From NCBI GenBank assembly GCA_044345375.1, contig JBIJBF010000002.1, forward strand, positions 46,619-110,618: a stretch of DNA of 64,000 bases, read 5' to 3'. Both the position numbers and the translations under genes were made by a program. Positions 2,108-56,634 of the stretch are shown here, one piece after another. This DNA comes from Alphaproteobacteria bacterium (GTDB lineage: Bacteria > Pseudomonadota > Alphaproteobacteria > CAISOG01). The notes under the pieces were generated by a model. That model saw only the letters and a program-made list of their open reading frames with translations. It made no database searches and was not told where the DNA came from. Numbering within the stretch: the stretch's first letter is position 1; each line of letters begins with the position of its first letter.

Positions 2108-3574
2108 ATGAAGTCAACTTGGGCAAAACTGGCGGTCTTAGGTTGGTTGGGGGTTTGCGCGCTAACCCTTCCGGTGCTGGCAACCCCGTCTGAGGATGGC
2201 GATCGCCTGTACGACAAGGGCTTTTTTCCGCAGGCCTTGGCGAAATACCAGGCCGAGTTGCGCACCACCAATGGCTGTGTTGGCACTTATGATTTGCGGC
2301 GCCCCCAGGTGCAACGGGCGCTCAAACAACTGGGGTCGATGTATGATAGTGGGGAGGGGGTGGCGGGCAATAGTCCCGATCCCAGCAAGGCGTTGCGTTG
2401 TTACACCAACCTTGGCGACTACGCCACCGCCCGTATTTTTGTGCGGCTTGGCGATATGCACACCACCGCCACCGGCTATCCCACCAACCAAGCGCCCGAT
2501 TTCCAAAAGGCCTTTAACGCCTATTGGAAGGCGGTGGGCAAGGGGGATAGCGGCGCCAAGATTAAGCTGGGGCGGATGTATCTTAATGGGCCATACCCCG
2601 CCGATGACAACCCCAATGCCTTTAACAACAACGACCGGCAACGCTATCAATACGCCGTCAATTTGCTGTTGGAATCCGCCAAATTTGACAACCCGCAATC
2701 GCAATTTTATCTGGGGCAGGTGGCGCAAAAGGGCTGGGGCTGCAACGCCAGCGACGTAAGGGCGTGGGGATGCGTGAAAAATGATGACGGCGGCAGCTAT
2801 GGCACGCCAACCCCAGCACTGGCCACCACTTGGTATGAAAAAGCTGCGCGGGGAAATTACGCGCCGGCGATGACCGCGCTGGCCAAACTGGCTGAGGGGG
2901 CTGGCAACGCGATTGCTGCCTATACCTGGTATGATTTGGCCAACAAGGCGGGCGATTCCTCCGTCAAGCCCATGGTGCCGCCCAATTGCTGGGAAAACGC
3001 CATGGCCGATCCCAGCACGATGGTTGACGGCGTGTCGGTGTTGGCGCAGGACAACCTGCCCACCTTTGTGGGCAAAAGCTGCACCGAACACACCCTGTAC
3101 AAAACCTATTCCAGCATTACCTATAACCAGGCCAACAACACGATTCTTTATAGCACCACCGATCCCACCCTGCGCACCCAGGCGCTGTATTATTACGTGA
3201 TGTGCGATGCCAATCTGTACCGTCAATCCTGCCAAGATGAAACCAGAACGCCCAAGGGGGTGTTGGCCTTGTCTTATGCGGTGACCGACCCTAACGAGCG
3301 CAGCGAAGCCCTGAAATACTGCACCAACCCTGACAACAACCCGCTGGTGCAACGGCTGAAAAGCAGCACCGACTATGTCAAAAATTCGCTGCTCAACAGC
3401 ATGAATTACAAGGATCGTTGCACGGCGCAATGCCTGTCCAAACTGTACAGCAGCAAAATCGGCCAAAGCCGGGATCCATTTTGGAACGATCCCCATAACG
3501 CCAGCTACCAAACCACCTGCGCCAACGGTTGCCCAAGCGCTAATCCGGCCTGCAGCGGCGGTGGCGGGGGGTAG
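2108..3574 (+). CDS. Secreted Cys-rich protein with degenerate Sel1-like repeats (hypothetical)
   Basis: 488-aa ORF with an N-terminal signal peptide (MKSTWAKLAVLGWLGVCALTLPVLATP). The N-terminal half has Sel1-like A..Y.KA...G...A...LG.MY motifs. The C-terminal half is Cys/Asn/Tyr-rich and ends in a GGGGG tail. The TAG stop is embedded in the recurrent 3' motif. Confidence 0.6.
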   Translation: MKSTWAKLAVLGWLGVCALTLPVLATPSEDGDRLYDKGFFPQALAKYQAELRTTNGCVGTYDLRRPQVQRALKQLGSMYDSGEGVAGNSPDPSKALRCYTNLGDYATARIFVRLGDMHTTATGYPTNQAPDFQKAFNAYWKAVGKGDSGAKIKLGRMYLNGPYPADDNPNAFNNNDRQRYQYAVNLLLESAKFDNPQSQFYLGQVAQKGWGCNASDVRAWGCVKNDDGGSYGTPTPALATTWYEKAARGNYAPAMTALAKLAEGAGNAIAAYTWYDLANKAGDSSVKPMVPPNCWENAMADPSTMVDGVSVLAQDNLPTFVGKSCTEHTLYKTYSSITYNQANNTILYSTTDPTLRTQALYYYVMCDANLYRQSCQDETRTPKGVLALSYAVTDPNERSEALKYCTNPDNNPLVQRLKSSTDYVKNSLLNSMNYKDRCTAQCLSKLYSSKIGQSRDPFWNDPHNASYQTTCANGCPSANPACSGGGGG

Positions 3575-3598
3575 AGCATTTTCCATTTCGCCCACCAC
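3572..3598 (+). repeat. Stop-codon-overlapping 3' motif, copy 1 (TAGAGCATTTTCCATTTCGCCCACCAC)
   Basis: It begins at the TAG stop of the 2108..3574 gene. It belongs to a five-member motif family in this window. Confidence 0.7.
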
Positions 3599-3669
3599 GT
3601 CGTCAGGCTACGGACTCGCCGTGCTCACGTATATAGGATACGCTCCGCGCGCCTCACCTTGCCTTGCCT

Positions 3670-3696
3670 GTGGTGAACGAAAGCGAAAACGCTCTA
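3670..3696 (-). repeat. Stop-codon-overlapping 3' motif, copy 2 (sense on minus strand: TAGAGCGTTTTCGCTTTCGTTCACCAC)
   Basis: The reverse complement begins at the TAG stop of ispE (CTA at 3694-3696). Together with copy 1 it forms an inverted pair separated by ~70 bp between convergent genes. Confidence 0.7.
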
Positions 3697-4539
3697 CTCC
3701 AAAAATCTGGTAAGCGCTAACCAATGGGCATCCGGATGGTTTTGCAGCTGGTGATAGGCTGCCTGAGCCGCCAAGGGCGGAAATATCCCAAAAAGTGCGC
3801 TGCCGCTGCCGGTCATGCCGCTTAGCAAACAGTTAGGTTGCTGTTGCAGCGCTTGCCTTAGCCTCGCCAAGCTGGGGTTCAGGGCGGCGGCCACGGGATA
3901 GAGATCGTTGTCGTCTTCTGCTCCCGCTGCCTGCGCCCCTGCGGTTTGCGCAAGTTTGGCAAACAGCTGCGCCGTCGATTGCTTGGCCTGCGGCATCACC
4001 AGCACCACCGACGCGCCGATCAGCTCTGGGGATAAGGCCATTGGTTCTACATGCTGCCCCACCCCTGTTACCACGGCTGGCTGGTTGTACAGACAAACCG
4101 GCACATCCGCGCCCAACCAATCATGCCACGGGGCGGCGTCCACCATCGCCTTATCCACGCCGGTCAGCATCATAAGCCCGCGAATCACCGCCGCTGCATC
4201 GGCGCTGCCCCCGCCCAATCCTGCGCCAGATGGGATGCGCTTGGTCAACTCGATTTGCACCGGCGGCAGGGTGGGGCAAAACCGCTGACGAAAAAGCGCT
4301 GCCGCCCTTAGCGCGAGATTGTTGGCAGTATCAGGAATATCGGCGGTGATCGCGCCATCAAGTTGCAGCTGATCGGTGGTTTCGGTGGGGGCAAGCAGGC
4401 GGATCGTCAGGTTATCCGCCAGTGCCAAAAAGGCGATGTTGCTGCGCAGCAGGTGATAGCCATCGGCCTGCCGCCCCAGAACTTTTAGGGAAAGATTCAG
4501 TTTGGCGTTGGCGTGGCCGACCCAAGTGGTGTTCGTCAT
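3694..4539 (-). CDS. ispE: 4-diphosphocytidyl-2-C-methyl-D-erythritol kinase
   Basis: 281 aa. The N-terminus AKLNLSLKVLGRQADGYHLL and the GHMP-kinase motif IPSGAGLGGGSADAAAV are present. Confidence 0.85.
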   Translation of the reverse strand: MTNTTWVGHANAKLNLSLKVLGRQADGYHLLRSNIAFLALADNLTIRLLAPTETTDQLQLDGAITADIPDTANNLALRAAALFRQRFCPTLPPVQIELTKRIPSGAGLGGGSADAAAVIRGLMMLTGVDKAMVDAAPWHDWLGADVPVCLYNQPAVVTGVGQHVEPMALSPELIGASVVLVMPQAKQSTAQLFAKLAQTAGAQAAGAEDDNDLYPVAAALNPSLARLRQALQQQPNCLLSGMTGSGSALFGIFPPLAAQAAYHQLQNHPDAHWLALTRFLE

Positions 4540-7366: not shown

Positions 7367-8296
7367 GTGATTAAGGCGCGCGACAATCAATATTTAGATT
7401 TTTTGGTTGATATTTGATTTGGCATCTGTTATTTTTACGATCAATTTATCAACTAATAAAAATCAAATGGAGAGACAAGATGCCTGACGTGATTAATTAT
7501 ATGTTATTTGAGGGCAGGTTTATGGAATACGGGAGTTTAATTACGCCGTCGGCCTACAGAACACTCAATGATGCCGTAGAAAACCCTAGATATACTGTTG
7601 GTTTTTGTGGTGGCAAAGAATATAGATATTTTGACCTGACTAAAATTAGAGCTACCAACCCTAACGCCGGATTGAACTGGAGCAACTGGGATAACGAGAA
7701 TTTGCGCGATGCGATTAACTCCTGTGGAGCCTTGGTCGACTTAAGCGGTTCGCATCTGCGTTCCGTATCTCTGAATGGGGCAAATCTGGCGGGGGCGAAT
7801 CTGAGCAATGCGAACCTGTGTGAGGCGAGCCTAAACGGTGCAGATCTAACGATGGCAAACCTGTCTTATTCTGTGATGTTTCAAGCCGGTCTAAAGGGGT
7901 CGAAGCTATTGGGGGCGCAGATGGTGAAGACGCATTTGGGGAATGCGGATCTGAGAGAGGCGGATCTGAGTTGGGCGAATCTGCAGGGGGCGAATCTGGA
8001 GAGTTACCTGTGCTACTTCAATCTGTGGGGAGAGAAGATGCAAGGGGAGAATCTGCGGGGGGCGAAGATGAAAGGGACGAATTTACAAGACGCTGAGTTT
8101 ACAGCGATATGGAAGCAACTAACAGTTGAGCAAGCCTTAGGGGCACGAAAATTGAGACCTGATCAGCGTGATTTGGTGTATCAACACAATACGTGGCTTC
8201 CAGCCCTTACAACCCAAATCTCCAACGGGTTGGAATGGGTGAATCAGCGCCATCCGGAGTTTTTCTACGGACGGTAGGTGAGGTTTTTACCTGCCC
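7367..8296 (+). mobile_element. Low-GC ~0.93-kb inserted cassette carrying a pentapeptide-repeat gene, lying between the two copies of the GST 3' end
   Basis: There is a sharp GC drop (an AT-rich promoter-like stretch at 7381-7500). The cassette is flanked by the 45-bp imperfect direct repeats 7319..7366 and 8297..8344. No recombinase is present. Confidence 0.6.
7414..8277 (+). CDS. Pentapeptide-repeat protein
   Basis: 287 aa with ~25 consecutive A(D/N)LxX pentapeptides (ANLAGANLSNANLCEASLNGADLTMANLSYS...ADLREADLSWANLQGANL). The GC content is low relative to the flanks. Confidence 0.8.
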   Translation: MIWHLLFLRSIYQLIKIKWRDKMPDVINYMLFEGRFMEYGSLITPSAYRTLNDAVENPRYTVGFCGGKEYRYFDLTKIRATNPNAGLNWSNWDNENLRDAINSCGALVDLSGSHLRSVSLNGANLAGANLSNANLCEASLNGADLTMANLSYSVMFQAGLKGSKLLGAQMVKTHLGNADLREADLSWANLQGANLESYLCYFNLWGEKMQGENLRGAKMKGTNLQDAEFTAIWKQLTVEQALGARKLRPDQRDLVYQHNTWLPALTTQISNGLEWVNQRHPEFFYGR

Positions 8297-9025
8297 CTAC
8301 CCATCCAACTCAGCGTAATGCGGGGCAGGGGGCAGGCTGGACAGGCGGTCTTGCAGCAGGCTGCGAAAGGCGGGGCGCGATTTTACCCGCGTGTACCAAT
8401 CCTTGGCGGCCAACTGCCGATCCCATGGAACATCGTTGATATAGTCCAATACGGATAGATGCGCCGCCGCCGCGCAATCGGCCACGCTGAAATGATCGCC
8501 GGCCAACCAATTGCGCCGCTCAGCCAAATAGCCGATGTAGTTCAGATGGAAGATGATGTTTTCACGACCCGCCCGAATTGCCCCCGAATCCGGCTCGCCG
8601 CGGCCGGTGATGCGCTTCATCACCCGCTCACCCAACAAATTTTTGGTCACCTCCTGCGCGAATTTTTCGTCAAACCAGCTGATCAGGCGGCGCACCTCAG
8701 CCCGCTCCTGCGGGGTTTGCCCCAGCAGGTTGATGCCGCCCTCAACCTCCTCAAGATACTCCACAATCGCCTGGCTGCCCACCACCGCCTGGTCGTTGCC
8801 ATCAATCATCACCGGCACCTGGCCCGCGGGGTTGATCGCCAAGAATTCGGGGCGCCGCTGCCAATAGGATTCCACCTCAAACGCGGCATGCAGCTTTTTC
8901 TCAGCCAGCACCAACCGCACCTTGCGCGAATAGGGGCACAGCGGAAAATGGAACAGGGTGCGAAGGCCTGGCGCCAGATGGCTGTTGTTCTGGAAATGAT
9001 TTTGGGTCGCCGTGGAATAATTCAT
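8297..9025 (-). CDS. Glutathione S-transferase family protein
   Basis: The GST N-terminal thioredoxin-like motif is present (LFHFPLCPYSRKVRLVLAEKKL...VPVMIDGN), followed by a C-terminal alpha domain. The preferred start is MNYSTAT at 9025. The ORF table gives 9049. Confidence 0.8.
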   Translation of the reverse strand: MNYSTATQNHFQNNSHLAPGLRTLFHFPLCPYSRKVRLVLAEKKLHAAFEVESYWQRRPEFLAINPAGQVPVMIDGNDQAVVGSQAIVEYLEEVEGGINLLGQTPQERAEVRRLISWFDEKFAQEVTKNLLGERVMKRITGRGEPDSGAIRAGRENIIFHLNYIGYLAERRNWLAGDHFSVADCAAAAHLSVLDYINDVPWDRQLAAKDWYTRVKSRPAFRSLLQDRLSSLPPAPHYAELDG

Positions 9026-9057: not shown

Positions 9058-9783
9058 TTAAGACATGTATTGCCCGCCGTTGATGGACAGGGTTTCCCCG
9101 TTGATAAAGGCGGCGCGGCTGTCGACCAGAAACAGCACCGCGTGCGCCACCTCCTCAGCCATGCCAAGCCGGCCGGCGGGGATGGTGGCGATCACCTTTT
9201 CCAACACCTCAGGGTGCACCGCGGCGACCATTTCGGTGTTGATATAGCCGGGGGCGATGGCGTTCACCGTAATGCCCTTGCCAGCCGATTCCAGTGCCAA
9301 CGCCTTGGTAAAACCAATCACGCCAGCCTTGGCAGCGGTGTAGTTGGTTTGCCCAACCTGACCCTTTTGCCCGTTGATTGAGGCGATGTTGATGATGCGG
9401 CCGTAACCCCGATCGCGCATGCCGCCAATCACCTGGCGGCACATGTTAAAGCAGGAGTTCAGGTTGGTGACCAGCACCGATGACCACTGCTCAGGCGTCA
9501 TTTTGTGCAGGAAGCCATCGCGGGTGATGCCGGCGTTGTTGATCAAAATCTCCACCGGCCCCAACTGTTCGGCGACCAGGGCGATGCCAGCAGCACAGGC
9601 GTCAAAATCGCCCACATCCCACTGATAGGTAGGAATGCCGGTTTGTTCGGTAAATTTTTTGGCCGCCGCCTGATTGCCGGCGTAGCTGACCGCCACCCGA
9701 TGGCCAGCCTGTTGCAGCGCCAGCGCAATCACCGCGCCGATTCCGCGGGTTCCACCTGTTACCAATGCCACACGATTTGTCAT
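9058..9783 (-). CDS. phbB: Acetoacetyl-CoA reductase (short-chain dehydrogenase/reductase)
   Basis: MTNRVALVTGGTRGIGAVIALAL...NNAGITRD...YTAAKAGVIGFTKALALE...ITVNAIAPGYINTEMV. This is the classical PhaB/FabG-type signature. The preferred start is at 9783. Confidence 0.85.
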   Translation of the reverse strand: MTNRVALVTGGTRGIGAVIALALQQAGHRVAVSYAGNQAAAKKFTEQTGIPTYQWDVGDFDACAAGIALVAEQLGPVEILINNAGITRDGFLHKMTPEQWSSVLVTNLNSCFNMCRQVIGGMRDRGYGRIINIASINGQKGQVGQTNYTAAKAGVIGFTKALALESAGKGITVNAIAPGYINTEMVAAVHPEVLEKVIATIPAGRLGMAEEVAHAVLFLVDSRAAFINGETLSINGGQYMS

Positions 9784-9905: not shown

Positions 9906-10054
9906 TATAGTCATTCCACTTTAAAAACTTACAGTGCTGCAAATGTCATGAGGTCTGCGATACGGTGCTCATGTACCCCATCGGTACACTCCGCTCCGTT
10001 TCTCGACCTCATGACATTTTCGCAGCTGTAACTTTTTAAATTGAAACGACTATA
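9906..10054. mobile_element. 149-bp palindromic MITE-like element, copy 1
   Basis: It has ~27-bp imperfect terminal inverted repeats (TATAGTCATTCCACTTTAAAAACTTAC ... GTAACTTTTTAAATTGAAACGACTATA) and TA-rich flanks. The whole element is a near-perfect palindrome. A second copy, ~95% identical, lies at 47748..47896. Confidence 0.75.
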
Positions 10055-10101: not shown

Positions 10102-11862
10102 ATGACCAAGCCAACATCGGATTTTCTGCCCAGCAAGTCGTTATGGAAACGCCTGATGCAAGGCTATGTGCGGCGGGAGGTGGGCAGCTTGGCGGTAGCC
10201 CTGCTGTGCATGGCGTTGGCGGCGGGCGCAACGGCGGCCTTGGCCAAGTTGATGGAGCCGGTGCTGGATCAGGTGTTTGTGCAAAAAAACGCGGGCAGCT
10301 TAACCCGCATCGCCGGGCTGGTGCTGGCCACCTTTGTGATCAAGGGGTTGGCCACCTATGGCCAGACCGTGCTGATGACCGGCGTGGGGCTTAGAATCGT
10401 TGCCAGATTGCAAGAACAGGTGGGCAGCCACCTGCTGGGCGCGGATTTGGCCTATTTCCAACGCCACCCCACCGGTGTGCTGTTGACCCATATGATTCAG
10501 GATATTCAGCAGTTGCGCTACGCGGTGTCGAACGCCATCACCGCGATTGGCAAAGACAGCCTGACCCTGATCGCCCTGCTTGCCGTGATGTTCTGGCAGG
10601 ATTGGCGCCTGGCCTGTCTGGCCTTTATCGCCTTTCCGGTGGCGATTTTGCCGATTCGTTGGATTGGTCGGCGGGTACGGCGTGAGGCGGCCAGTGCGCA
10701 GGTGCAGCAGGCCAACCTCTCAAGCCTGTTGATGCAGCTGTTTCAGGGCATTCGCTACGTCAAGGCCTATGGGGCTGAGGGGGTGGAGTCGGCGCGGCTG
10801 GCGGCGCAGGTGGCCGACACCCAAACCCACCAGATGATGCTAACGCGGGTTAAGGCGGCGGCGCACCCCCTGATGGAGGGGTTGGGGGGCGTGGCGATCG
10901 TGCTGGTGATCATTTATGGCGGCGAGCAGGTGATGGCCGGCACCCGCACCACCGGCAGCTTTTTCTCTTTCATCACCGCCCTGCTGCTGGCCTATGAGCC
11001 GCTCAAACGCCTGACCCATCTGAACGCCAATCTGCAGGAGGGGTTGGCGAGTGCCGCCCGGGTGTTTGCCCTGCTCGACACCCCAAGGCAGGTGGTGGAT
11101 ATCCATGGCGCCGCTGCCCTGCGATCCAGCGGCGGTGAAATTCGGTTCGATCAGGTCAGCTTTGGCTATAGCGACGAACAATCGGTGCTTGACCGCCTAA
11201 GCTTTACCATTCCCGCGGGGCAAACGGTGGCGATTGTTGGGCCATCGGGGGCTGGCAAATCCACCATTGCCAACCTGATGCTGCGCTTTCAGGATCCTTT
11301 GGCTGGGCAGGTGCTGGTGGATGGCCAGGATATCGCCGCGGTGACCCAGGCCAGCCTGCGCCAATCGATCGCCTTTGTGGGTCAAGAAATTTACCTGTTT
11401 AACGCCAGCGTTAAGGATAATGTTGCGTATAATCAGGAACATGCCAGCCAGAAAAACATTGAATCGGCGGTGGCGGCGGCGGGCGCGGCCGGTTTTGTGG
11501 CGGAACTGCCCGATGGCTTGGCAAGTTTGGTGGGCGAATTGGGCAACCGCCTGTCGGGCGGCCAGCGGCAACGCATCGCCCTGGCCAGAGCGTTGCTGCG
11601 CGATGCGCCAATTCTGTTGTTGGATGAGGCCACCTCAGCCCTTGACCCGGAATCCGAACGCCACGTGCTGGCCAGCCTAAAACGGCTGCGGATGGGCAAA
11701 ACCACGGTGATGATCGCCCACCGCCTGTCAACCATTGTCGACGCCGACCAAATCTTGGTCCTATCAGCCGGCCAGTTGGTTGAGCAGGGACGGCACGAGA
11801 AACTGCTGGCCAGCGGCGGCCTGTACAGCCAACTTTATCAGCAACCTGAGGGGGGTGCGTAA
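10102..11862 (+). CDS. ABC transporter permease/ATPase, MsbA-like lipid exporter family
   Basis: 586 aa. The N-terminal region has 6 TM segments. The C-terminal NBD carries Walker A GPSGAGKST, the signature LSGGQRQRIALARALL and Walker B ILLLDEATSALD. Confidence 0.85.
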   Translation: MTKPTSDFLPSKSLWKRLMQGYVRREVGSLAVALLCMALAAGATAALAKLMEPVLDQVFVQKNAGSLTRIAGLVLATFVIKGLATYGQTVLMTGVGLRIVARLQEQVGSHLLGADLAYFQRHPTGVLLTHMIQDIQQLRYAVSNAITAIGKDSLTLIALLAVMFWQDWRLACLAFIAFPVAILPIRWIGRRVRREAASAQVQQANLSSLLMQLFQGIRYVKAYGAEGVESARLAAQVADTQTHQMMLTRVKAAAHPLMEGLGGVAIVLVIIYGGEQVMAGTRTTGSFFSFITALLLAYEPLKRLTHLNANLQEGLASAARVFALLDTPRQVVDIHGAAALRSSGGEIRFDQVSFGYSDEQSVLDRLSFTIPAGQTVAIVGPSGAGKSTIANLMLRFQDPLAGQVLVDGQDIAAVTQASLRQSIAFVGQEIYLFNASVKDNVAYNQEHASQKNIESAVAAAGAAGFVAELPDGLASLVGELGNRLSGGQRQRIALARALLRDAPILLLDEATSALDPESERHVLASLKRLRMGKTTVMIAHRLSTIVDADQILVLSAGQLVEQGRHEKLLASGGLYSQLYQQPEGGA

Positions 11863-11872
11863 GGCGATCGTA

Positions 11873-11928
11873 AATTCCCCTCCCGCGGAGGGGTGGCAGG
11901 CGCAGCCTGACGGGGTGGTTTTTTCAGG
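11873..11928. repeat. REP-like GC-rich palindromic unit (locus A)
   Basis: aattcccctcccgcggaggggtggcaggcgcagcctgacggggtgg. This is the same unit family as at 13606, 41286, 46383 and 56566. Confidence 0.8.
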
Positions 11929-11932
11929 GTGT

Positions 11933-13447
11933 TTAACGCCCCCTTTCCTGCTCTGCCAGCCTTTGCGCATCTAGATATGCCAGCGTTTCCTGTGCCGCTT
12001 GTTTGACCACGGAATCTGTCGCTTCAGCTGCGATGATTCGTAGTGTTTTGTCTGCATCTGGTGCAAGATTTCCTACCGCTTGGAAGCCCTGAATAATGGT
12101 TTGCCGCACATAACGATCGTCTTGTGTATCTTCGGCTATCCTTAACAGTGTTTCTTGTAATGGGAAATCTTGGGGTGTTTTTTGCAGAAGTGCGGTGATC
12201 GCGGCGCAACGCAGGCCAGGTGAGTTTCCTTTATAGGTTGCGGTTTCTAGCCATCTCTCGTGCGAATTTTTATTCTGATCTATAGATGTTATCGTTTCTA
12301 TCGCAGATTCCTTGACCAAGGAATCTGTCGCTTTGTTCGCGATCATGTGTAGTTTTGTGTATGCATTTGGTTCAAGGTTTTCTACCCCTTGGAAACCCTT
12401 AATAATAGCAACCCTAAGGTCAAAAATTTCTGCTTCATTTTCTGCTATTTCTAAAATTTTTAATTGCATGGAGTAATCTTGGGGTAGATATTGCAAAAGT
12501 TTGGTAATCGCTGTTTGACGTTTGCTAAGACATAGGTCTGCATTATTTGCGTTTCTACACAAATCATTTTTATTTTTTTCTAAATCAACAGACTTCAGCG
12601 TGCTATTTATATCGTTTTTTACATATTGAACCCGATGTCGTGCTGCAATTTGTTGTAGTCTTTTGTATATATTTGGTTTGGAGTATGCTATTCCGGAGAA
12701 ATTACCAATAATATTTTGTATTAATTGGCATTCTGGCGAGTAATCGTTTGTTTCTGTGTTTTCAATAACTGTTAACAAGCAATTTTGAACATGTTCATTG
12801 TTTGGCATAAGATACAAAAGAACATTAATTATTTGGATTTTATTTTTTAAATATTCTTCTTGATTGATGGCGATTTCACGCAGCCACTCTCTAACCGTCG
12901 AATGATGCCAAGCATGACGATTCCTAGGATCTGTTATATAATCCAAGATTTGCTGATGTGATTGTTGTGATTGCCGTGCGGCCGTTGTAAGAACTTGGCT
13001 AGCTCTATTAGAAAGTTCAGGGTGGCTTCTGCCGATACAGTCGCCTATTTCCTTCATGACTTCTGGGTTTTCTATCGATGGGACAAGAGCATTGATTGCT
13101 GCAAGGCCAACAACGACATGCTCGGGAGAATGTTCGTGTAACAAGGCACCAATCACCTCTTGTAGCTCGGCATTTCCTGAAACGGTATGGCCTAAGGCAT
13201 TAATCGCCGCTGCGCGAATCTCCGGTAATCGTTGCGTGTTTTGAGCGCAGGTCAGCAACTCCTGTTGCACAACAGGATATTTTGCATAGTTTTTGAAAAT
13301 CCAGATGAGAGTTTTAGTATTCGGACCGTTTTCACTGAAAACAAGATCTTTCGGATCATTAAGCCGTGGCAGCAATTTCTCGAAGAACAGCTCTGCCCAA
13401 AACCCCATTGGACGCACAAATTCCGCTGAAACTTCTGTTGTGCCCAT
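11933..13447 (-). CDS. HEAT-repeat (PBS-lyase-like) protein, hypothetical
   Basis: 504-aa ORF made of degenerate HEAT-like helical repeats. Most of the gene is AT-rich (12250-13450) and the 3' part has a diverged internal tandem duplication. It is flanked on both sides by REP-like elements. Confidence 0.6.
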   Translation of the reverse strand: MGTTEVSAEFVRPMGFWAELFFEKLLPRLNDPKDLVFSENGPNTKTLIWIFKNYAKYPVVQQELLTCAQNTQRLPEIRAAAINALGHTVSGNAELQEVIGALLHEHSPEHVVVGLAAINALVPSIENPEVMKEIGDCIGRSHPELSNRASQVLTTAARQSQQSHQQILDYITDPRNRHAWHHSTVREWLREIAINQEEYLKNKIQIINVLLYLMPNNEHVQNCLLTVIENTETNDYSPECQLIQNIIGNFSGIAYSKPNIYKRLQQIAARHRVQYVKNDINSTLKSVDLEKNKNDLCRNANNADLCLSKRQTAITKLLQYLPQDYSMQLKILEIAENEAEIFDLRVAIIKGFQGVENLEPNAYTKLHMIANKATDSLVKESAIETITSIDQNKNSHERWLETATYKGNSPGLRCAAITALLQKTPQDFPLQETLLRIAEDTQDDRYVRQTIIQGFQAVGNLAPDADKTLRIIAAEATDSVVKQAAQETLAYLDAQRLAEQERGR

Positions 13448-13605
13448 GAAAAACCCCTTAAGAAAGATATCAACGAATAAAACTATATTTTATTTTAAAT
13501 GTCAATAAATGTTATTGTAGCATAGGGTTTTTGGTTTGGTGTTGCTGTTGGCGTGCCTGGCCCGTTAGGCTGTGCCGGACAAAGCGGGGGGGCGCAAAGA
13601 AAGAA

Positions 13606-13706
13606 CCACCCCGTCAGGCTTCGCCTGCCACCCCTCCGCGGGAGGGGAATAAGTAAGACGTCCCTAAATTCCCCTCCTGCGGAGGGGTGCCCGAAGGGCG
13701 GGGTGG
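13606..13706. repeat. REP-like element cluster (two inverted units), locus B
   Basis: ccaccccgtcaggcttcgcctgccacccctccgcgggaggggaat, then after a spacer the inverted unit aattcccctcctgcggaggggtgcccgaagggcggggtgg. It lies directly downstream of rho and the HEAT gene. Confidence 0.8.
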
Positions 13707-13740
13707 TTCTTGCGGGTAATACCCCGTCAGAAAGCAACTC

Positions 13741-41271: not shown

Positions 41272-41285
41272 GGGGGGCGTAAGGA

Positions 41286-41419
41286 CCACCCCGTCAGGCT
41301 TCGCCTGCCACCCCTCCGTTATCATTTTGTCAGGCAAAGCCTGACGGGGGGGAGGGGAATAAGTGCGTCGGGTAATTCCCTTCCTGCGGAGGGGTGGCAG
41401 GCAAAGCCTGACGGGGTGG
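41286..41419. repeat. REP-like element cluster (three units), locus C
   Basis: ccaccccgtcaggcttcgcctgccacccctcc ... caggcaaagcctgacggggggaggggaat ... aattcccttcctgcggaggggtggcaggcaaagcctgacggggtgg. It lies between recX-like and polA. Confidence 0.8.
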
Positions 41420-41444
41420 TTGCTGCGGAAGGGTTGCTGAACTT

Positions 41445-46382: not shown

Positions 46383-46468
46383 CACCCCTCCAAGAGGGAG
46401 GGGAATTGATGCGGCCGTCTTATTCCCCTCCCTCTTGGAGGGGTGGCAGGCGAAGCCTGACGGGGTGG
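46383..46468. repeat. REP-like element pair, locus D
   Basis: cacccctccaagagggaggggaatt...attcccctccctcttggaggggtggcaggcgaagcctgacggggtgg. It lies downstream of secF and rpsD, which are convergent. Confidence 0.8.
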
Positions 46469-46564
46469 TTTTGCCTGCCTGAATCTTCCAAAAAAATGGC
46501 CCATCTCGAATCTGAGATAGGCCATTTTTGATAATGTTTGAAGGTCTTTCCTGGGAAAGAAACC

Positions 46565-47603: not shown

Positions 47604-47679
47604 TGGTGCCCGCAGCCAGAATCGAACTGACGACCTAACGATTACGAATCGTTTGCTCTACCAACTGAGCTATGCGGGC
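47604..47679 (-). tRNA. tRNA-Thr (CGT)
   Basis: On the minus strand: GCCCGCATAGCTCAGTTGGTAGAGCAAACGATTCGTAATCGTTAGGTCGTCAGTTCGATTCTGGCTGCGGGCACCA. It is 76 nt with the anticodon loop TT-CGT-AA. Confidence 0.85.
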
Positions 47680-47747: not shown

Positions 47748-47896
47748 TATCGTCATTCCACTTTAAAAACTTACAGTGCTGCAAATGTCATGGGGTCTGC
47801 GATACGGTGCTCATGTACGCGTAGGTACACTCCGCTCCGTTTCTCGACCTCATGACATTTTCGCAGTCTGTAACTTTTTAAATTGAAACGACTATA
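47748..47896. mobile_element. 149-bp palindromic MITE-like element, copy 2
   Basis: ~95% identical to 9906..10054. It lies between tRNA-Thr and serA, which are divergent. Confidence 0.75.
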
Positions 47897-47980: not shown

Positions 47981-49579
47981 ATGTCTTCAGCTGCCCCCAA
48001 AATTCTGATCGCCGACGATCTTTCCCCCGCTGCGGTTGCGGTGTTTGCCAAGGCTGGGTTGCAGGCGGACGTCAAAACCAAATTGCCGGTTGAGGAGTTG
48101 ATGGCGATTCTGCCCGCCTATGAGGGGTTGGCGGTGCGTTCCAGCACCAAGGTGACCGCACAGGTTTTGGCCGCCACCACCAACTTGCGGGTGATTGGCC
48201 GCGCGGGGATCGGGGTTGACAATATTGATGTCAAGGCCGCCTCAGCCTCCGGCGTGGTGGTGATGAACACGCCCTTTGGCAATTCGGTGACCACGGCGGA
48301 GCATGCCTTTGCGCTGTTGATGGCCTTGGCGCGCCAACTGCCAGCGGCGGATGCCAGCACGCGGGCGGGCAAATGGGAAAAATCCCGCTTCATGGGCGTT
48401 GAATTGCTGGACAAGCTGTTGGGCGTGATCGGTTGCGGCAACATCGGCGCGCATGTCGCGGTGCGCGCCAAGGCCTTTGGCATGCGGGTGTTGGCCTATG
48501 ACCCCTATCTCACCAACGAACGTGCCGCCCATTTGGGGGTGGAAAAGGTTGAGTTGGAGGGTTTGCTGGCCAACGCCGATTTCATCACCCTGCACACCCC
48601 AATGACCGAAAGCACGCACCATCTTTTGAACGCCACCACCCTGGCCAAAACCAAGCGCGGCGTGCGCCTGATCAACTGTGCCAGGGGCGGCCTGATCGAC
48701 GAACAGGCGTTGCAGGATGCGCTGGCCAGCGGCCAGGTGGCGGGCGCGGCGCTGGACGTGTTTGAAACCGAACCGGCGCGGGAGCATCCGTTGTTTGCCG
48801 ATGAACGGGTGATCTTCACCCCGCATTTGGGTGCCTCAACCGCTGAGGCGCAGGAAAAGGTGGCGGTGCAGGTGGCTGAGCAAATGGTCGACTTCCTGCT
48901 GCATGGCGCGGTCAGCAACGCCGTCAACCTGCCCTCGGTCAAGGCGGATGAGTTGGAGCATTTGAGCCCCTATCTGAAATTGGCCGAGCAATTGGGGCAA
49001 TTGGCTGGCCAAATTACCGGCAAGGCCATTCAGGCGGTGGAATTGGCCTATGAGGGGGCGGCGGCGCAGTTGAACACCAAGGCGCTGAGCAATCTGGCGA
49101 TTTGCGGCCTGCTTAGCCCGATTTTGAACGATGTGAATCAGGTCAACGCGGCGCAACTGGCGGCGGCACGCGGCATCAAATTGCAGGAGGTTAAGCGGGA
49201 GCGCAACCCCGACTTCCAAAGCCTGATCCGCCTAACCGTGACCACCGAATCAGGAAACACGACCTTTGCCGGCACCATTTTGGGCGGCAAGCTGCCCCGC
49301 ATTGTTGAGCTGGATGGGGTGCATATCGAGGCTGAGTTGGGGGCGCAAATGCTGTACATGCGCAACGCCGACCGCCCAGGCTTTATTGGCGCGCTGGGGC
49401 AATGTTTGGGCCAGCATGGCATCAACATCGCAACCTTTCATTTGGGGCGCACCGGCCCGCAGCAAACCGCGATTACCCTGCTGCAAACCGATCAACCGGT
49501 GCCAGCTGATGTGGTGAAATCGTTGCAGCAACTGCCGCATGTGGAACGGGTGGTCACCCTGTCGCTAAGCGCGGCTTAG
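47981..49579 (+). CDS. serA: D-3-phosphoglycerate dehydrogenase
   Basis: The NAD-binding motif GVIGCGNIGAHVA is present, with a catalytic domain and a C-terminal ACT domain. The preferred start is MSSAAPKILIADD at 47981. Confidence 0.9.
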   Translation: MSSAAPKILIADDLSPAAVAVFAKAGLQADVKTKLPVEELMAILPAYEGLAVRSSTKVTAQVLAATTNLRVIGRAGIGVDNIDVKAASASGVVVMNTPFGNSVTTAEHAFALLMALARQLPAADASTRAGKWEKSRFMGVELLDKLLGVIGCGNIGAHVAVRAKAFGMRVLAYDPYLTNERAAHLGVEKVELEGLLANADFITLHTPMTESTHHLLNATTLAKTKRGVRLINCARGGLIDEQALQDALASGQVAGAALDVFETEPAREHPLFADERVIFTPHLGASTAEAQEKVAVQVAEQMVDFLLHGAVSNAVNLPSVKADELEHLSPYLKLAEQLGQLAGQITGKAIQAVELAYEGAAAQLNTKALSNLAICGLLSPILNDVNQVNAAQLAAARGIKLQEVKRERNPDFQSLIRLTVTTESGNTTFAGTILGGKLPRIVELDGVHIEAELGAQMLYMRNADRPGFIGALGQCLGQHGINIATFHLGRTGPQQTAITLLQTDQPVPADVVKSLQQLPHVERVVTLSLSAA

Positions 49580-50930: not shown

Positions 50931-52037
50931 ATGGAACGCTACATCGCCTTGTTAAAAGAATTCCTGCAGGAGCTCACAGCCTCGTCAGAGGTTTCTGCTG
51001 AGGCGCTTTTTGCCGAAACGCAGGCCAAGGCAAAGGGCGGGGATGTGGTGGCGCAACGAAATTTGGGTGTGCTCTACGCCCTTGGGGCTGGGGTTGGCCA
51101 AGACGCGGCCAAGGCGCTGCACTGGTTTCAATTGGCGGCGTATAGCGACGATGCCGTGGCGCAATATATCTTGGGCGTGATTTATGAGGAGGGGGCGGGG
51201 GAAGACAGCGATCCTGCTGAGGCGCTCAAATGGTATCGTAATTCGGCCGAGCAGGGGTATGCAACCGCGCAAAACTGTCTTGGTTGGATGTACCGTTGGG
51301 GCGTTGGGGTGCCCCAGGATTACGCTGAAGCGGTCAAGTGGTACCGCAAAGCCGCGAAGCAGGGGGATGCAAAGGCGCAAAGAAATCTTGCTGTCATGTA
51401 TTATGAGGGTTATGGGGTTCGCAAAGACGCTGCAAAGGCGATGGTATGGTTCAGAGAGGCGGCAGAACAAGGAAATGTATCTGCGCAATTCTTGCTTGGA
51501 GCTATGTATTCCGCAGGTGGGGAAGATTTGCCTAAGAACAATATCGAAGCGGTCAAATGGTACCGCAAAGCCGCTGAGCAGGGGGATGTATCCGCGCAAT
51601 TCTTGCTTGGGACTATGTATTTCGTAGGTGACGGATTGCCTCGGAACGATATCGAAGCGGTCAAATGGTACCGCAAAGCAGCGAAGCAGGGTTATGCATC
51701 CGCCCAACACTCGCTTGGGGTTATGTATGAGTGGGGGTGGGGCGTTCCCAAAGACGCAGCCACGGCGGTCAAATGGTACCGCAAATCAGCGAAGCAGGGC
51801 GATAGGTATGGACAGAGAGATCTTGGCCTGAGTTATGCCAATGGCCATGGGGTGCCCAAGAACAAGGAAAAAGCCTATATCTGGTTGGAGCGAGCTGTTG
51901 CACAGGGGAAGGAGGATGCCTGCAAAATGCGCGATGAAATTGCCGCCCAACTAACCCCAGCGCAGCTTGCCCGTGCGAAAAAGGCGGCCAGCCAGCCTTT
52001 GGACGTGGAGGTGTTCGACGCTGAATCAACCGCTTGA
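50931..52037 (+). CDS. Sel1-repeat protein (9 tandem Sel1 repeats), no signal peptide
   Basis: Repeated 36-aa units of the form AEAVKWYRKAAEQGDVSAQFLLGTMYFVGDGLPRND. The DNA at 51100-51850 is a tandem array of ~108-bp repeats with lower GC. Confidence 0.75.
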   Translation: MERYIALLKEFLQELTASSEVSAEALFAETQAKAKGGDVVAQRNLGVLYALGAGVGQDAAKALHWFQLAAYSDDAVAQYILGVIYEEGAGEDSDPAEALKWYRNSAEQGYATAQNCLGWMYRWGVGVPQDYAEAVKWYRKAAKQGDAKAQRNLAVMYYEGYGVRKDAAKAMVWFREAAEQGNVSAQFLLGAMYSAGGEDLPKNNIEAVKWYRKAAEQGDVSAQFLLGTMYFVGDGLPRNDIEAVKWYRKAAKQGYASAQHSLGVMYEWGWGVPKDAATAVKWYRKSAKQGDRYGQRDLGLSYANGHGVPKNKEKAYIWLERAVAQGKEDACKMRDEIAAQLTPAQLARAKKAASQPLDVEVFDAESTA

Positions 52038-56525: not shown

Positions 56526-56565
56526 GGACCGTTGGTAGTTTCAGTGGAGGAGGTGTCAGCAAGAA

Positions 56566-56610
56566 CCACCCCGTCAGGCTTCGCCTGCCACCCCTCCGCG
56601 GGAGGGGAAT
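56566..56610. repeat. REP-like unit, locus E
   Basis: ccaccccgtcaggcttcgcctgccacccctccgcgggaggggaat lies between uvrD and pheT, which are convergent. Confidence 0.8.
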
Positions 56611-56634
56611 TTAGGGCATCCAATATCCCCCCCC

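Follow-up and report, generated by a model that had tools for sequence, protein, structure and literature searches.

The two 149-bp palindromic repeats of the 64-kb window (the whole stretch of DNA that was analysed) are, with a probability that we put at about 0.9, copies of a MITE, a non-autonomous DNA transposon that stems from an IS of the IS630/Tc1-mariner type. This origin, which the first-pass annotation of the window had proposed, is supported by the membership of the repeats in a multi-copy family, by TA duplication on insertion, and by the match of their terminal inverted repeats (TIRs) to the ends of IS630-family elements. The family is undescribed and of a well-known kind; it is not a new kind of element.

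Copy A occupies positions 9906..10054 and copy B positions 47748..47896, both in + orientation, which for copy A is assigned by the family model (nhmmer scores of 178 bits in the + orientation versus 68 bits in the - orientation). The 149 bp of copy A include a TA at each end, and the element proper (9908-10052, 145 bp) consists of a left TIR (9908..9934, + strand; TAGTCATTCCACTTTAAAAACTTACAG), a right TIR (10026..10052, - strand; reverse complement TAGTCGTTTCAATTTAAAAAGTTACAG) and, at the tip of the hairpin, a central core that is the most conserved part of the family (9956..10004, + strand; CTGCGATACGGTGCTCATGTAC, a variable loop and GTACACTCCGCTCCGTTTCTCG). The left TA (9906..9907, no strand) would be one half of a target-site duplication with its partner at 10053-10054; we infer the duplication at copy A itself from a sister copy described below, the same-species contigs being filled in every case. 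Copies A and B are 94.7-95.3% identical in a full-length alignment with 7 differences, which comprise TATAG in copy A versus TATCG in copy B at the left end, one A/G difference, a different loop, and two 1-nt indels. Homology between them ends abruptly at TAT(A/C)GTC on the left and GACTATA on the right, beyond which the flanks are unrelated, and a degenerate 25-nt pattern (GTCRTTYCAMTTTAAAAASTTACAG) matches the window at the four termini alone, where 0 matches are expected by chance. The inverted repeat is 50 nt long with 82% complementarity, and each copy folds over its whole length into one long hairpin (-66.4 kcal/mol, z = -10.6, for RNA of the + strand; -82.1 kcal/mol, z = -14.0, for the - strand). 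No third copy was found within the 64-kb window by blastn with short words or by nhmmer. The coordinates given in the first-pass annotation are exact, as are the identity of about 95%, and the imperfect TIRs of about 27 bp and the whole-element hairpin that it described are real; its "TA-rich flanks" are an error, since the repeat unit itself begins and ends with the dinucleotide TA.

Gene calls and TIGR models confirm that the neighbours previously named for copy A (phbB/msbA-like) and copy B (tRNA-Thr/serA) are divergently oriented. To the left of copy A lies a gene for acetoacetyl-CoA reductase (PhaB-like SDR; 9058..9783, - strand; TIGR01829, 336 bits with a cut-off of 302), with its start codon 122 nt from the element, and to the right lies a gene for an MsbA-like ABC exporter (10102..11862, + strand; TIGR02203, 532 bits, under the equivalog cut-off of 602), with its start codon 47 nt away. 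Copy B is preceded by tRNA-Thr (CGU) (47604..47679, - strand) and followed at a distance of 84 nt by the start codon of serA, encoding D-3-phosphoglycerate dehydrogenase (PGDH; 47981..49579, + strand; TIGR01327, 670 bits with a cut-off of 454). An exact-protein look-up located the copy A locus, element included, in three lake/other metagenome assemblies (L001-L003), and the copy B locus in nine more contigs, of which L124-L127 span the region in full; JGI 3300042387, JGI 3300033994 and ENA ERZ27272083 represent the same population as the window. The element-inclusive spacing is unchanged in every same-species contig that spans either site, and no empty site was found for either window copy, every spanning contig being filled. 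Both copies are fixed in the sampled population and are separate insertions into intergenic TA sites. Four Logan contigs begin inside the right TIR of copy B, 114 nt upstream of serA, and Logan contig L004 begins inside the right inverted repeat of copy A; short-read contigs break inside the element because a multi-copy repeat does this to assemblies. The MsbA-like protein has its homologues in Alphaproteobacteria, at identities of just 76% for the closest and 57% for the next, so that the source of the window belongs to a poorly sampled uncultured lineage; synteny at copy A is absent from the nearest relatives (MsbA 76% identical).

Other repeats of the window are of different kinds. A second, unrelated family consists of GC-rich REP-like palindromic units of 50-75 bp (...CCACCCCGTCAGGCTTCGCCTGCCACCCCTCCGCGGGAGGGGAAT...) at 11848-11925, 13598-13716, 41278-41429, 46398-46477 and 56556-56616, which occur in both orientations, some pairs being 96-100% complementary. 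Two inverted units of 52 nt (11874-11925 and 13599-13650; 96% complementary) bracket a stretch of low G+C (11874-13650; 0.44 versus about 0.58 for the window) that encodes a 504-aa HEAT-repeat protein (11933-13447, - strand) and may be an acquired cassette. Tandem coding repeats are present at 51219-51885, in units of about 108 nt, and at 7770-8070, in 15-nt units of the pentapeptide type within a gene that has Pfam Pentapeptide matches.

The genome-wide copy count that had been suggested as a check on the MITE reading revealed a dispersed, multi-copy family in related genomes and metagenomes. The exact 25-nt TIR pattern of the window subfamily has 0 matches in the genome and metagenome collections, from which the source organism is absent, and shorter, more degenerate patterns were required for finding relatives. 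A scan of one genome per species with a 20-nt TIR pattern (TAGTCRTTYCAMTTTAAAAA) matched 65 genome loci, concentrated in a few alphaproteobacterial MAGs that share the G+C of the window (0.57-0.58); the counts, which are lower bounds from fetched loci that contain the exact 20-mer, are 17 instances in Loclat_bin-11545, 15 in ME2017 bin46 and 14 in ZLKRG11. Metagenomes, scanned likewise, contributed another 47 loci. The full copies recovered number 50 distinct sequences, 30 of them 149 bp and 12 of them 179 bp in length, with further subfamilies of 119 bp and 129 bp; all start with TATAGTC, end with GACTATA and have unrelated flanks. Identity is 93% within the main 149-bp class and 86% between that class and the window copies, and the centre of the MFD03250 subfamily is unrelated to that of the other members. 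No protein matching translations of the element was found in a database of 5.8 billion sequences, and no plasmid match was found by blastn.

What sets the 179-bp form apart from the 149-bp form is an additional block of 30 nt in the right half of the core. The block (CGCCGTCGCTGCGCTATGGCGCGCC(C/T)(A/G)GC) is bounded by short CCGC repeats, and orthologous copies of unequal length (149 versus 179-180 bp) were observed in two cases: L023 1282-1430 versus L062 2712-2891, and L094 1459-1607 versus L007 167-347. The two lengths may therefore be states that change into each other in place, through deletion between the CCGC repeats, and not separate lineages. Orthologous insertions are common to species-level MAGs with flanks 91-92% identical; the family thus predates the splits between genomes whose flanking sequences differ by 8-9%. 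When genes were called simply as the longest ORFs, 49 of the 50 copies fell between genes, and neither orientation relative to neighbouring genes is preferred. Among the 42 copies with a called gene on both sides, the arrangement is divergent for 11, convergent for 11 and tandem for 20. The location between divergent genes that was pointed out for both window copies is thus not a trait of the family; it is a coincidence of two.

Insertion of the element duplicates the dinucleotide TA. When both flanks of each copy were joined by a single TA and matched against all fetched DNA, one orthologous pair of empty and filled sites was obtained (L008/L094). The empty site reads ...CATCAGCAA-TA-GAATGCCGCC... 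(inner part ...CAGCAA-TA-GAATGCC...), and the filled site reads ...CATCGGCAT-TA-[TAGTC...AACTA]-TA-GAATGCTGCC... (inner part ...GGCAT-TA-[element]-TA-GAATGCT...). Because a single TA in L008 corresponds to TA-element-TA in L094, the element proper comprises 145 bp and the TA is duplicated, as demonstrated by this single clean pair, which concerns a sister copy of those in the window. Across 46 copies, the terminal TA is present at 38 left ends and 44 right ends, a pyrimidine precedes the TA (position -1) in 41, and a purine follows it (position +1) in 38, so that the target is a palindromic YTAR. Such a symmetric preference outside the element is the signature of target choice by a transposase and is not a property of the repeat. 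Thus, the Tc1/IS630-like target duplication that the first-pass annotation had considered consistent with the flanks is now seen as an exact event at one site and as a YTAR preference throughout the 46 copies.

A search for ISs of the IS630/Tc1 family with the same TIRs, which had also been suggested, was successful. The left TIR of the window element together with its TA is identical at 22/22 nt to the end of an IS in L093 and at 21/22 nt to the left end of an IS in L121, both of which encode DDE_3 transposases. The L121 IS (1148-2073, 926 bp) has the TIRs TATAGTCATTCCACTTTAAAA and, as reverse complement, TATAGTCATTCCACTTGAAAA, and contains two ORFs that, joined by a -1 shift at an A8 run, give a 284-aa DDE transposase; the L093 IS (689-1410) is a decayed copy that matches Pfam DDE_3 (E = 3e-24) and, weakly, HTH_Tnp_IS630. 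Further relatives of the IS630 family with TATAGT ends are found in L122 (a single 282-aa ORF), in L134 (a Neochlamydia plasmid) and in L031 (a Streptococcus locus), and database relatives are annotated as IS630 family transposase or ISFtu1 transposase; the Conchiformibius IS630 copy L133 has no recognisable TATAGT ends. The TIR-matching ISs belong to other organisms of lower G+C and have nothing in common with the MITE beyond about 21 nt; therefore, they identify the parent subgroup, not the parent itself. With the L121 transposase as query, tblastn found no member of this IS630 transposase subgroup, either in the window or among the fetched alphaproteobacterial loci (about 290 kb in all, about 8 kb around each hit); MAGs often lose IS copies. 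The end sequence that would mark the cognate IS630 element of the window MITE is TATAGTCATTCC. In another community, AT-rich contigs (G+C 0.30-0.36) of JGI metagenome Ga0209737 (L080, L081, L084, L085, L089, L097, L107, L114 and L116) contain many repeats that begin with precisely the same 22-nt end (TATAGTCATTCCACTTTAAAAA) but run on into another interior (...GTATATTTTTGCACCGTCATTGCGGGCTTG...). Small elements seem to have arisen separately from this one IS630 subgroup in hosts that are not related.

Among known elements, the window MITE resembles RUP of Streptococcus pneumoniae, an IS630-family MITE for which IS630-Spn1 is the proposed mobiliser (PMC2229807, PMC3049150). Both are non-coding elements of about 100-150 bp with TIRs like those of IS630-family ISs (PMC2229807, PMC3049150), and both insert at TA with duplication and are intergenic, multi-copy and folded into a long stem-loop. 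The window MITE differs from RUP in having no sequence similarity to it, in being hosted by uncultured alphaproteobacteria, in matching ISs of the TATAGT-end subgroup (L121 with its -1 frameshift at the A8 run), and in that no cognate IS was seen among the fetched loci of its host lineage. With ISFtu1-like ISs of the IS630 family (DDE_3, TA target) it shares the outer 21-22 nt of the TIR (L121, L093) and the TA flanks, whereas it has no transposase gene, shares no interior sequence past the TIR, and is a near-palindrome and not a simple internal deletion.

The element is also like the Correia elements of Neisseria (CREE/NEMIS). Both kinds of element are of similar size, with TATAG...CTATA termini, a TA target and a whole-length fold, and both come in a short and a long version set apart by an internal block (Correia elements, about 107 and 155 bp; present family, 149 and 179 bp). 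The repeat published for Correia elements, tatagtggattaaatttaaatcagg (PMC5039591), agrees with the right TIR of the window copies at 17/22 ungapped positions, with a permutation p of 0.004 for the 16 positions after TATAGT; in the alignment, TATAGTCGTTTCAATTTAAAAA at 10026-10054 and 47868-47896 stands against the Correia sequence tatagtggattaaatttaaat. An end of the Neochlamydia IS630 element (TATAGTGGTTTGAATTTTAAAT; L134, about 1460-1497) likewise agrees with the Correia repeat at 17/22 ungapped positions. Neither end of the window element has the 26-bp Correia repeat TATAGTGGATTAA(C/A)A..., agreement with the four published variants being limited to 12-17/22 positions (PMC5039591). A scan detected no outward sigma-70 promoters of the Correia kind in either window copy, and reading of the sequence by eye detected no IHF site with a WATCAA-type core in the element. 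Membership in the Correia family was rejected, the TIR being just partly similar (14-17 of 22 positions) and the interior unrelated; the hosts also differ at the phylum level. MITEs with TATA ends are thought to derive from IS630 (PMC4853749), and the enzyme that mobilises Correia elements was reported as undetermined (PMC2649163). The similarity of the TATAGT ends (including TATAGTGG) suggests, at the level of sequence, that Correia elements may derive from the same IS630 subgroup.

Several copies of the MITE are interrupted by other elements. In L039, an IS110-family element (2337-3723; Pfam DEDD_Tnp_IS110 and Transposase_20) lies exactly at the midpoint of a sister MITE of 129 bp, and the insertion is flanked by CT at either side (...GAAAAGCT-CT/.../CT-GGGCACC, slashes marking the limits of the IS); the same sister MITE is uninterrupted in L025 (7839-7967), and in L060 (5685-5917) it contains a 104-nt relic of the left end of the IS110 element, all three loci being on MAG chromosome OY970150.1. 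The left non-coding end of the L039 IS contains GTAAAAGCTCTGTGCC, which equals the left flank of the target extended by CT and then by the right flank GGCAC in reverse complement; this target-like segment reads AAAAGCTCT-GTGCC. The non-coding end presumably resembles a guide (bridge) RNA programmed for the MITE centre, as in the 2024 work on IS110/IS621, and it had no match in Rfam. This IS110 element was considered and rejected as the MITE parent, L025 showing the same MITE uninterrupted and the IS having its own ends inside the MITE. Another candidate for parent was a 9-kb contig of GCA_964687945.1 (L007), which ends on both sides in truncated copies (1-347 and 8716-9024); these are not the ends of an IS but two MITE copies of the 179-bp type, their right arms interrupted by other elements. 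One of them adjoins a reading frame that we take to be the C-terminus of an IS30-family transposase (...ENTNGRLRRE..., ...LNWLTPLEAF...), and the other is broken at TA and followed by a short N-terminal ORF (MEKRDARKLGLAAQAEV...) with no Pfam match. The L007 and IS110 cases suggest that other ISs often insert into the MITE.

According to the mechanism that we propose for the family, a DDE transposase encoded by a full-length IS630-family element would act in trans on the 145-bp element, which has TIRs of about 27 bp and is without coding capacity: the enzyme would bind both repeats, excise the element and insert it at a TA, preferably within YTAR, the TA becoming duplicated in the process. No matching transposase was found in the window or the fetched alphaproteobacterial loci, and some insertions occur in more than one species, which makes it probable that the copies are old and no longer move. 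The window copies are most likely old, immobile passengers without a dedicated function. Their restriction to intergenic sites reflects, in our reading, the loss of copies that damaged genes.

Two explanations that dispense with a DDE transposase were weighed. Segmental duplication of promoter DNA within this genome, without any mobile element, could be entertained while just two copies were known in the 64-kb window, both between divergent genes and both upstream of genes on the + strand; it is scarcely credible now that dozens of copies are known at unrelated loci in other genomes, that homology between copies stops exactly at the termini of the inverted repeats, that a TA duplication is visible at an orthologous pair of empty and filled sites, and that the TIRs match IS630 ends. 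The result that the first-pass annotation had named as favouring such a duplication, namely two copies and no others together with no TIR-matching transposase, did not occur, and we regard this explanation as excluded. REP and REPIN sequences are short GC-rich palindromes that cause no target duplication and are associated with a RAYT gene. Spread of the element as a palindrome of this type by a RAYT (an IS200/IS605-like tyrosine transposase), or by another single-strand hairpin mechanism in place of a DDE enzyme, would accommodate a near full-length palindrome that is intergenic and multi-copy, as well as the lack of a DDE partner in the fetched loci of the host lineage, and the window does hold a separate GC-rich REP-like family. 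This mechanism is nonetheless very improbable for an element that duplicates its TA target, prefers YTAR and carries long TIRs identical to IS630 ends; no RAYT gene lies beside any copy in the ORF lists inspected, and a length of 145 bp with AT-rich 27-bp end repeats and defined termini is atypical of REP/REPIN (PMC2817692).

The MITE origin itself is compatible with a later acquisition of function. Column identity in an alignment of 31 copies (A3) is 98-99% in the core (columns 51-71 and 79-99), compared with 95% in the TIRs and 90-92% in the arms, and the 7-nt loop within the core varies freely (72%); columns 51-99 correspond to 9956-10004 and 47798-47846 of the window copies. In three out of four orthologous pairs whose flanks can be compared, identity is higher for the MITE than for the DNA beside it (96% versus 91-92%; 98.7% versus 96.5-98%; 95% versus 88%), the fourth pair having different subfamilies at the same site (flanks 92%, MITE 82%). 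All 50 copies fold more strongly as - strand RNA (-65 versus -49 kcal/mol); this bias arises where an A·C mismatch of one strand becomes a G·U pair in the other. Compensatory change is found in a few stem pairs, such as pair 44-106, which is CG in 22 sequences and UA in 8. A purely passive reading predicts neither the conservation of the central 50-bp core above the TIRs, nor the greater conservation of the MITE than of its flanks, nor the fold bias towards one strand. All of these observations can be counted in favour of co-option, in which the conserved central hairpin of an element of MITE origin would have come to serve as a structured RNA or protein-binding site tuning its neighbours (phaB/msbA-like and serA); the RNA might, for example, be a processing site in 5' or 3' UTRs, for RNase III or another enzyme, in the manner reported for Correia and ERIC elements; such effects are documented for Correia elements (PMC10969869, PMC2649163). 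Against this stand the random orientation relative to genes and the equal use of all gene arrangements, the lack of any Rfam match to the element (none at the gathering score and none at E <= 1), and the unrelated centre of the MFD03250 subfamily. The compensatory changes follow subfamilies and therefore represent few independent events, and the core conservation and strand asymmetry could come from inheritance from one master copy or from gene conversion among copies. The earlier suggestion that the element might provide promoters or terminators found no support, in that a promoter scan detected no sigma-70-like promoter inside either window copy and a terminator scan detected no intrinsic terminator at either. 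We consider co-option unlikely, and its more specific form, in which the 50-bp module (CTGCGATACGGTGCTCATGTAC, loop, GTACACTCCGCTCCGTTTCTCG) of a domesticated MITE is kept by selection as a structured RNA or protein-binding site at many loci, quite unlikely.

Identification of the two repeats as copies of an IS630-type MITE accounts for two conserved intergenic hairpins and for the short-read assembly breaks at the same positions. It adds an undescribed MITE family and its likely parent IS630 subgroup to what is known of poorly sampled uncultured freshwater alphaproteobacteria, and it provides a clean example of TA duplication with a YTAR target. The likeness between the TATAGT ends and those of Correia elements hints at the type of transposase by which the latter may have been dispersed. 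If the element were domesticated, the family would be a dispersed regulatory element in a freshwater alphaproteobacterial lineage rather than inert junk.
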